This document shows, piece after piece, positions 16,801 through 18,007 of a stretch of DNA of 18,234 bases (its first letter is position 1; each line of letters opens with the position of its first letter). The notes below the pieces were generated by a model. The model saw only the letters and a list, made by a program, of their open reading frames with translations, ran no database searches and was not told the DNA's origin. Origin of the DNA: a virus; UHGV virus genome UHGV-0285855, one strand, 5' to 3'. A program made the translations under genes and the position numbers.

Positions 16801-16989
16801 ATGTATCGAAACATACGGTGCCGACACTGCAATAAGCTACTGGCACGGGCCAGTTTCAGTTATCTGGAAGTAAAATGTCCGCGCTGTAAAACCCTCAATC
16901 AAATCACATCTCAGAGCGCCACAGAGCACCCCACATACACAAGGAAATCCTGCCGTGGGGAACAAGAAACATTACTTTCAGTCAGATAA
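16801..16989 (+). CDS. com: Com-like zinc-finger translational regulator
   Basis: 62 aa; Cys at positions 7, 10, 26, 29 (CxxC-15-CxxC); AGGAGG at 16785-16790; same length and Cys spacing as phage Mu Com; 3' end overlaps the downstream modification gene as com overlaps mom in Mu. Confidence 0.75.
   Translation: MYRNIRCRHCNKLLARASFSYLEVKCPRCKTLNQITSQSATEHPTYTRKSCRGEQETLLSVR
16929..16960 (+). promoter_or_regulatory. Stem-loop sequestering the methyltransferase start codon (candidate Com-responsive translation-inhibition structure)
   Basis: CCCCAC (16929-16934) pairs with GTGGGG (16955-16960); the 20-nt loop contains AGGA (16942-16945); GTG 16955-16957 is the only plausible start upstream of methyltransferase motif I. 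Confidence 0.4.
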
Positions 16990-18007
16990 GTCACTAACCT
17001 ATGGTTCAGTATGCAGTGGTATTGAAGCTGCGACAGTAGCCTGGAGCAATCTTGGCTGGAAAGCCAGATGGTTCAGTGAAATAGAGGACTTCCCGTCAAC
17101 ACTTCTTTCATATCGCTGGCCCCATATACCAAATCTTGGTGATATGGCTTTGCTTGCGCCTCGTATCAGGGATGGGCTTATTGAAGCACCAGATATTCTT
17201 GTAGGTGGAACTCCGTGTCAGGCATTCAGTATGTCAGGAAAACGAAAAGGCCTTTCAGATCCACGGGGGCAGTTAACACTGTCTTTTGTTGAACTGGCGA
17301 ATCAGATAGATACCGTTCGGGCATCGCTCAATAAATCCCCCTCAATAATCGTATGGGAAAACGTCACAGGAGTTTTAAGTAGCCATGACAATGCATTCGG
17401 TCATTTTCTTGGTGCGCTGGCCGGAGCAGGTTGCGCATTACAGCCAGCAAGGAAAAGATGGGCAAACGCTGGTGTTGTGTCTGGACCATCGCGTATCGTC
17501 GCCTGGCGAGTACTTGATGCCCAATATTTCGGAGTCGCCCAGGCTCGCAGAAGAGTGTTTGTTGTGGCAAGTGCTGGAAAAAGGCTCGATCCCGGAAAGG
17601 TATTATTTGAGTTCCCGCCTGTGTCGCAGGGCGATAAAAACTATTACGGAAAGAAGAAAAAATCCGAATCCCTTCTTGATCAAGGCATTGAAGGAAAATT
17701 GCACCGATATTGCCTTGAAGCATTGCCAAAACGAACAGGCACAGTAATAGCTGGCTATAACGGAACAACTAACCAGGACATGACTATGTCTGGTGGGCTC
17801 ATAGTTGAAAGAGCGCCATATTCAAGGGTTCGTAGGTTGACGCCAACCGAATGCGAGAGGCTACAAGGTTTTCCCGATGGATATACAGATATTCCATGGA
17901 AAAATTCATCTCCAGCTCATCGTTATAAGGCCATTGGAAATTCAATGCCTGTACCGGTCATGAAATGGATTGGTCGAAGAATACAGGAAGCGTTAAACGA
18001 AGTTTAA
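16955..18007 (+). CDS. DNA cytosine-5 methyltransferase (orphan; no restriction enzyme gene nearby)
   Basis: 350 aa; motifs in canonical order: GSVCSGIEA (I), GGTPCQAFS (IV, catalytic Cys), WENV (VI), QARRRVFVV (VIII), RLTPTECERLQGFPDGYT (IX), AIGNSMPVP (X). No in-frame ATG lies upstream of motif I, so the start is inferred as GTG 16955. Confidence 0.85.
   Translation: MGNKKHYFQSDKSLTYGSVCSGIEAATVAWSNLGWKARWFSEIEDFPSTLLSYRWPHIPNLGDMALLAPRIRDGLIEAPDILVGGTPCQAFSMSGKRKGLSDPRGQLTLSFVELANQIDTVRASLNKSPSIIVWENVTGVLSSHDNAFGHFLGALAGAGCALQPARKRWANAGVVSGPSRIVAWRVLDAQYFGVAQARRRVFVVASAGKRLDPGKVLFEFPPVSQGDKNYYGKKKKSESLLDQGIEGKLHRYCLEALPKRTGTVIAGYNGTTNQDMTMSGGLIVERAPYSRVRRLTPTECERLQGFPDGYTDIPWKNSSPAHRYKAIGNSMPVPVMKWIGRRIQEALNEV

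Follow-up and report, generated by a model that had tools for sequence, protein, structure and literature searches.

The right end of the virus genome UHGV-0285855 raises the question of what a Mu-type com gene controls when it is followed by a gene other than mom. The established role of mom in phage Mu is anti-restriction. The window, i.e. the full stretch of 18,234 nucleotides (nt) to which all coordinates refer, is the right-hand ~18 kilobases (kb) of a transposable, Mu-type E. coli prophage, of the Sp18-like group of Shiga-toxin-producing strains. Here, com (16801-16989, + strand) overlaps by 35 nt, at this Mu-like prophage's right end, an open reading frame (ORF) for a cytosine-5 (C5) DNA methyltransferase (16955-18007, + strand). 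The explanation that we consider likely, from sequence comparison and by analogy with Mu, is that mom was exchanged for an orphan C5 methyltransferase in the right-end operon, and that the new gene would be Com-gated, expressed late, and protective.

A first-pass annotation, made from the DNA alone, had proposed a 62-amino-acid (aa) Com-like protein with a CxxC-15-CxxC zinc finger, overlapped by a 350-aa protein with the C5 motifs PCQ, ENV, QxRxR, and GN. Both assignments were borne out by profile searches. The 62-aa protein matched PF10122, the Zn_ribbon_Com family of Zn-ribbon translational activators (E = 6e-13; 48.5 bits, cutoff 22.9 bits), with cysteines at residues 7, 10, 26, and 29 and 45% identity to Mu Com. 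Over residues 1-55, a single change (Q38 versus P) distinguished it from Com of the com-mom sibling prophages (Sp18-type). Binding of zinc and of a cognate mRNA hairpin is predicted, the CC-N3-GAG motif being present in a hairpin context. The protein name at NCBI is ‘Com family DNA-binding transcriptional regulator’ (L001, 3202-3390), as opposed to the RNA-binding translational activator of the literature (PMC6483171).

The 350-aa product, which starts with GTG, matched PF00145 (E = 1.6e-42, profile positions 5-323/324), exceeded the cutoff of TIGR00675 ‘dcm’ (137 bits, cutoff 100.65 bits), and matched M.HhaI at 2.7e-16. All C5 motifs occurred in canonical order: I (YGSVCSGIEAA, aa 16-26), IV (GGTPCQAFS, 84-92), VI (VWENV, 133-137), VIII (QARRRVF, 196-202), IX (293-307), and X (AIGNSMPVPV, 326-335). 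Orthology to E. coli Dcm was rejected (NF007772, 40.5 bits against a cutoff of 710 bits), and the specificity therefore need not be CCWGG. Solved structures were likewise set aside as a guide to the target: matches to M.HhaI and M.HaeIII span the catalytic motifs and leave out the target-recognition region, so no specificity was assigned from them. No cognate endonuclease gene was found beside the methyltransferase, with com upstream and 164 nt to the prophage end downstream; the other nearby ORFs encode DUF826, DUF1378, or hypothetical proteins. The methyltransferase is an orphan, as the first-pass annotation had proposed, and not part of a Type II restriction-modification system.

The exchange was mapped by comparison with two com-mom sibling prophages (L002 and L003; blastn). 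Their flanks were 97% (16668-16971) and 93% (18071-18171) identical to the window and the sequences in between unrelated, in support of the earlier proposal that the Com-controlled slot had been refilled. The swapped block (16972-18070, about 1.1 kb) stands where the siblings have a 748-base-pair (bp) mom body and 3′ tail. Its left breakpoint falls 17 nt into the downstream ORF, which starts GTG GGG AAC AAG AAA CAT TAC in the window and GTG GGG AAC AGA AAA CAA GTT in the siblings. Codons 1-3 (Val-Gly-Asn) are thus the same as in mom, the nucleotide match runs on to about +17, interrupted by two mismatches in codon 4, and the new coding sequence is joined in frame from about codon 6. No similarity to Mom was found in the methyltransferase past about codon 6, the first three residues (VGN) alone being identical to Sp18-type Mom. 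With the breakpoint at this point of the ORF, com-mom is the source of the upstream promoter region and its two GATC sites, of com itself, and of the Com RNA motif, the Shine-Dalgarno sequence (SD), and the start-sequestering stem; retention of Mu-type control elements had been proposed before, and the breakpoint follows the Com motif, the SD, and the stem. The final six Com codons (from 16972) come from the swapped-in block and differ from those of the siblings. They belong to a C-terminal tail that in Com is disordered and not needed for RNA binding (PMC6483171).

The same mom/C5 polymorphism was found in Salmonella behind a near-identical initiation region, with a breakpoint at about +19, i.e. 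within 2 nt of the E. coli position (+17). These comparisons point to the C5 methyltransferase as an allelic replacement at the mom slot, and either direction of exchange (mom to C5 or the reverse) fits. A direct donor of the cassette was not identified among its relatives, the closest com-less ones being about 70% identical. Base composition was uninformative as a sign of foreign origin (GC fraction 0.46 for the cassette, 0.465 for mom, and 0.44-0.45 for the adjoining accessory DNA). Sibling L002 also carries, at 3077-3459 (versus 16668-16675 of the window), an extra segment of ~384 bp just 5′ of the com promoter region that is absent from the window; RefSeq places a partial pseudogene on the opposite strand in this segment.

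The target of Mu Com is a short hairpin, the 19-mer GAAUGCCUGCGAGCAUCCC with the motif CC(N)2-3GAG, and adjoins a ‘translation inhibition structure’ (TIS), a stem containing the GUG start of mom (PMC6483171). Equivalents of both elements were located in the window. The counterpart of the Mu 19-mer, GAGCGCCACAGAGCACCCC, lies at 16914-16932 (+ strand) with the motif CCACAGAG at 16919-16926. The TIS stem-loop (16929-16960, + strand), homologous to that of Mu, forms in the minimum free energy fold by pairing of CCCCAC (16929-16934) with GUGGGG (16955-16960). Its loop, of 20 nt compared with 11 in Mu, holds the SD of the methyltransferase (AAGGAA, 16941-16946), and the GUG start (16955-16957) is located in the stem.

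Both structures were compared over 22 distinct sequences with Mom, C5, and PF01555 payloads. The six-pair TIS stem was paired in 132 of 132 cells (slid controls: 33-60%), and its outer pair covaried perfectly, being C-G in 16 sequences and U-A in six; both of these changes are synonymous in their respective frames. The Com hairpin was 84% paired, with double-sided changes at all four pairs. One nucleotide, 16929 (alignment column 16), is common to the Com hairpin and the inhibitory stem. The alignment suggests that 16929 pairs with either 16916 or 16960, in mutually exclusive helices sharing one base, and such a shared base would fit the published idea that Com binding destabilizes the inhibitory stem. 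Positions 16916, 16929, and 16960 (columns 3, 16, and 47) displayed three-way covariation (G/C/G in 16 sequences, A/U/A in three, and G/U/A in three). By these comparisons, the Mu-type translational control module has been retained intact, and the need of Com for translation itself is expected from Mu.

No canonical start codon other than the GTG at 16955 precedes motif I, and the next ATG lies at codon 64. A functional methyltransferase must therefore initiate at the sequestered GUG. This position bears on the alternative that the methyltransferase is translated independently of Com, by leaky or alternative initiation and also in lysogens, and acts as a modifier of the host epigenome or as a prophage regulator instead of serving late self-protection. 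Regulatory roles are frequent for orphan methyltransferases (general knowledge; reviewed in PMC12707154), and the predicted stem is modestly stable (about -13.7 kcal/mol for a 68-nt segment). However, the only start codon yielding motif I sits in the conserved stem, behind the same promoter region as in the com-mom siblings. Moreover, com-less relatives also hold late-lytic positions in lambdoid prophages, and Mom and comparable phage methyltransferases have been reported to be silent in lysogens (PMC12707154; PMC3299994). Com-independent expression therefore appears distinctly unlikely, and Com-gated translation from the sequestered GUG is preferred.

Protein comparison against a large database recovered a com-C5 lineage in prophages of E. 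coli, Salmonella, and Citrobacter. Relatives of 350 aa with an ‘MGN...’ start were 79% (E. coli) and 68% (Salmonella, Citrobacter) identical to the window protein; one Salmonella cluster comprised 1,584 member sequences, and the 90%-identity cluster comprised 182. All ‘MGN...’ relatives examined were located behind a Zn_ribbon_Com gene, with an overlap of 32-35 nt (mostly 35), in each case at a Mu-like prophage's right end. By these comparisons, the com-C5 pairing is an old, widespread, and selected lineage of Enterobacteriaceae (E. coli, Salmonella, and Citrobacter) and not a one-off. In lambdoid prophages, com-less relatives (344 aa, ‘MTS...’ start, about 65-70% identical) occupied a late-lytic position, with the antiterminator or RusA gene on one side and the lysis genes on the other. 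The body of the enzyme is thus shared across phage types, and differences are confined to the N-terminal ~10 residues and to the control region.

Among alleles of the methyltransferase, the ratio of nonsynonymous to synonymous substitution rates (dN/dS) was 0.11-0.22 at a dS of about 1, which indicates long-term purifying selection. An intact gene under selection argues for function, with transfer of methyl groups to DNA as the predicted activity. A megablast search with window positions 16600-18234 against 5,426 complete E. coli genomes returned matches at 99.2-99.7% identity in ten. In these ten, RefSeq annotates both genes (‘Com family...’ and ‘DNA cytosine methyltransferase’). Two records of Shiga toxin (Stx) phages contain the same DNA, with an annotation as an inserted Mu-like phage; the paper on these Stx-phage-embedded copies does not mention the methyltransferase gene (PMC10132054). 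The ten E. coli copies occupy differing chromosomal or prophage sites (see also PMC10132054), which indicates recent transposition.

These data also bear on the view that com and the methyltransferase gene are a decaying pair in a defective prophage, the enzyme being inactive. Defective prophages are common in E. coli (general knowledge), and motif I of the methyltransferase is atypical. Against decay, both ORFs are intact with all catalytic motifs present, and the 182-member cluster, the low dN/dS at a dS of about 1, and the recently transposed copies all point to a maintained gene. Decay is accordingly the most improbable of the alternatives, and the pair is probably functional.

If the Mu scheme applies, the operon would be transcribed solely late in lytic growth. 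Com would bind the hairpin immediately 5′ of the inhibitory stem, its binding would open the stem, and ribosomes would start at the GUG. The enzyme would 5-methylate cytosines of replicated phage DNA before packaging, and the methylated DNA would be protected against cytosine-sensitive restriction enzymes of the next host. Tight gating would keep a potentially toxic enzyme silent in lysogens, e.g. in McrBC-positive cells. The position of com-less relatives in lambdoid late regions is consistent with late-lytic expression.

Possibly, the gene is Com-gated and late, yet serves an end other than anti-restriction, such as a packaging mark, the control of late genes, or a shield from a nuclease of its own or another prophage. 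Packaging of P1 requires methylation of pac (PMC12707154), a regulatory role has been proposed for the Dam-type methyltransferase of the Mu-like phage B3 (PMC7549136), and any such role is conceivable here. On the other hand, the gene occupies the exact slot of the anti-restriction gene mom, where it alternates with Mom and two classes of amino-methyltransferases, and the free exchange of unrelated chemistries suits a generic masking of the DNA better than sequence-specific regulation. A purpose other than anti-restriction is unlikely on this evidence, and late, Com-gated protection of phage DNA is retained as the preferred explanation.

Several points weigh against this explanation. At the RNA level, (i) the window type has a mismatch, C.A, at pair 4-15 of the Com hairpin, and (ii) the thermodynamics of the fold are weak, with z-scores of -0.8 to -1.7 and 11 of 200 shuffled sequences folding as well at z = -1.7; support for the fold was therefore taken from homology and covariation instead. 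For the protein, (iii) motif I is the variant CSGIE, which departs from the classical FxGxG though it is kept across the family. Regarding transcription, (iv) Mu has three GATC sites and the window two (Mu's third being absent), with a spacing to com unlike that in Mu, and (v) the gene of the late activator C, like its binding site, lies outside the window. Furthermore, (vi) the com-C5 allele is rare in E. coli, being present in 10 complete genomes compared with 226 for com-mom, and (vii) Com-RNA binding, Com dependence, formation of 5-methylcytosine, and protection from restriction are transferred from Mu by analogy, here as well as for the com-mom siblings. Finally, (viii) 5-methylcytosine is itself the target of McrA/McrBC/Mrr-type systems, so it is uncertain how host range would be affected overall. 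The need for tight gating could be a consequence of such targeting, as could the C5 allele being in the minority in E. coli.

To place the window among other com loci, we surveyed the gene following com in the 80 best Com-bearing loci of IMG/VR, a redundant sample biased to query-like Com. In this sample, com was followed by Mom in 39 loci, a PF01555 N6/N4 methyltransferase in 22, a C5 methyltransferase in 12, a PF02086 Dam-type methyltransferase in six, and another gene in one. The 12 C5 loci fell into three unrelated lineages, comprising eight loci of the window family, three loci (L072, L077, and L081) at 27% identity, and one (L097) at 29% identity. In L072, L077, and L081, the Com site GAATGCCNNCGAGCATCC is almost identical to that of Mu and is followed by a different stem, GCAUCCG/UGGAUGC, holding an AUG. 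The PF01555 payload of L045 likewise begins with Val-Gly-Asn and has the same initiation region as the window. In L072, a high-GC viral contig (3001-4829), one com stands ahead of two different methyltransferases: a C5 enzyme at 3107-3988, followed by an N6-adenine enzyme of the Dam type at 4017-4829.

A broader proposal, which we advance tentatively and regard as nearly as likely to hold as to fail, would join these observations. Com, hairpin, and stem would form a portable, payload-agnostic gate with a fixed recombination boundary directly after GUGGGGAACAA, and Mom, C5, and PF01555 enzymes would have been exchanged repeatedly as alleles of one anti-restriction locus in Mu-like phages of Enterobacteriaceae. 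C5 enzymes would have been recruited at least three times, the start codon being rebuilt into a stem each time, and nucleotide 16929 would act as the toggle. The specificity of the C5 enzyme may be relaxed, like that of Hia5 and Hin1523.

Among known systems, the locus most closely parallels com-mom of Mu and of the Sp18-type prophages (E. coli O157/O26). Shared features are the position as last operon before the right end, overlapping genes, a homologous Com, the Com RNA motif, a start-sequestering stem with GUG, and aligned upstream GATC sites. Sp18-type mom starts with Val-Gly-Asn like the window gene, whereas Mu's own mom starts with Val-Gly-Lys. The payloads differ in kind: Mu Mom has an acyltransferase fold and modifies adenine (methylcarbamoylation), and the window payload is a C5 DNA methyltransferase.

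Loci that kept com and had mom replaced by an unrelated, orphan N6-adenine methyltransferase are described in PMC3299994 and in work cited there. They comprise (i) hin1523 of FluMu, (ii) nma1821 of Pnm1, (iii) comHia-hia5 of H. influenzae biotype aegyptius, and (iv) ORF47/48 of the Pseudomonas phage B3. Com-type control has been proposed for such modules, including hin1523, and some amino-methyltransferases in the mom slot were shown to be near-nonspecific protectors (PMC3299994). The window resembles these modules in retaining a com homologue with an orphan DNA methyltransferase at the mom position. It differs in that the C5 family has another fold order, another chemistry, and another set of blocked restriction enzymes, and in that the C5 product, unlike that of the N6-adenine modules, is a substrate of McrBC-type systems. 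Also unlike in these modules, the existence of near-identical com-mom siblings permitted mapping of the breakpoints at nucleotide resolution.

Orphan phage C5 enzymes of the same family include lambdoid forms (P0008 and P0024; 65-70% identity), that of Pectobacterium phage ZF40 (64%), that of Bcep22 (50%), and the C5 domain of Dmt from P1/P7 (46%); a partner endonuclease is absent in all. In contrast to the window gene with its mom-derived ‘VGN...’ N-terminus, they lack com, start at an ATG of their own, and carry an ‘MTS...’ N-terminus.

Whether the pairing was new had been left open by the first-pass annotation. The principle of a replaced mom behind com is not new, having been published for N6-adenine enzymes (PMC3299994). 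No paper reporting a C5 methyltransferase behind com was found in the literature; full-text coverage was incomplete, and this absence is not proof. New here are the nucleotide-level breakpoints, the three-way exchange of payloads behind one initiation region, the covariation of the stem, and the independent recruitment of C5 enzymes behind com.

By these results, the mom slot in Mu-like phages extends beyond the modification of adenine (by Mom and N6-adenine enzymes) to predicted cytosine-5 methylation. Siblings with com-mom and com-C5 separate sequences borne by the gate from those borne by the payload and offer a natural minimal test set for translational activation by Com, in which Com and the RNA element are constant and three payloads alternate. 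The Com/TIS cassette could act as a compact, transferable switch for toxic genes. These prophages are mobile in Shiga-toxin-producing E. coli, with Stx phages among the sites of insertion. If expressed late, the C5 methyltransferase could alter the restriction barriers crossed by prophage DNA and by co-packaged host DNA.

Upstream of com, the palindrome AATCGATCG-N7-CGATCGATT (16733-16757) contains GATC (Dam) sites at 16737 and 16750, which correspond in the alignment to Dam sites 2 and 3 in the promoter region of Mu mom. From Mu, a role of this palindrome in OxyR/Dam control or in C binding may be expected. The promoter-proximal region (16770-16790, + strand) comprises a -10-like TATCAT (16770-16775), with no recognizable -35 element, and the SD of com, GGAGG (16786-16790). 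A consensus scan detected no sigma-70 promoter upstream of com; the one ‘terminator’ that it called coincides with the GATC palindrome (minus strand). The missing sigma-70 consensus would fit an activator-dependent promoter of the Pmom type, and the scan was otherwise uninformative.

The methyltransferase is the last gene ahead of the prophage right end at 18171. Six independent copies share sequence up to ...CGCCGCGCTATA at 18171 and continue into unrelated flanks, and the annotation of LC727881 has the same end. This places the end of the prophage at 18171 and makes 18172-18234 host DNA. The 58-aa ORF at 18026-18202 was rejected as a gene: Pfam finds nothing in it, and it is almost certainly not a gene because it crosses the prophage/host junction (18171/18172). 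The conserved right end (18071-18171) contains the repeated CGGTATCAAA (18123 and 18145), GTATCAAAAAA (18090), and an 11-nt inverted repeat (18076-18086 and 18108-18118). These repeats are probably transposase-binding sites. The terminus of the prophage is ...GCGCTATA (TA), and that of Mu is ...CA.

Further differences from Mu were noted to the left of com. In Mu, gin is directly followed by the mom promoter; in the window, an accessory block of ~3 kb (13686-16616) is located between the gene of the Gin invertase (13028-13600) and com. This block encodes a 682-aa SASA-esterase/DUF6645 protein (13686-15734), DUF1378 (15868-16050), DUF826 (16086-16340), and a hypothetical protein. Among sibling prophages, the esterase gene varies strongly (69-89% nucleotide identity). 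The gin homologue and Mu gin are about 70% identical, with 12923-13458 matching Mu, and a 40-nt inverted match to the boundary region of the Mu G segment was found at 11620-11659. Both strands carry ORFs at 12016-13383, which suggests a tail-fibre segment that is invertible like the G segment of Mu.

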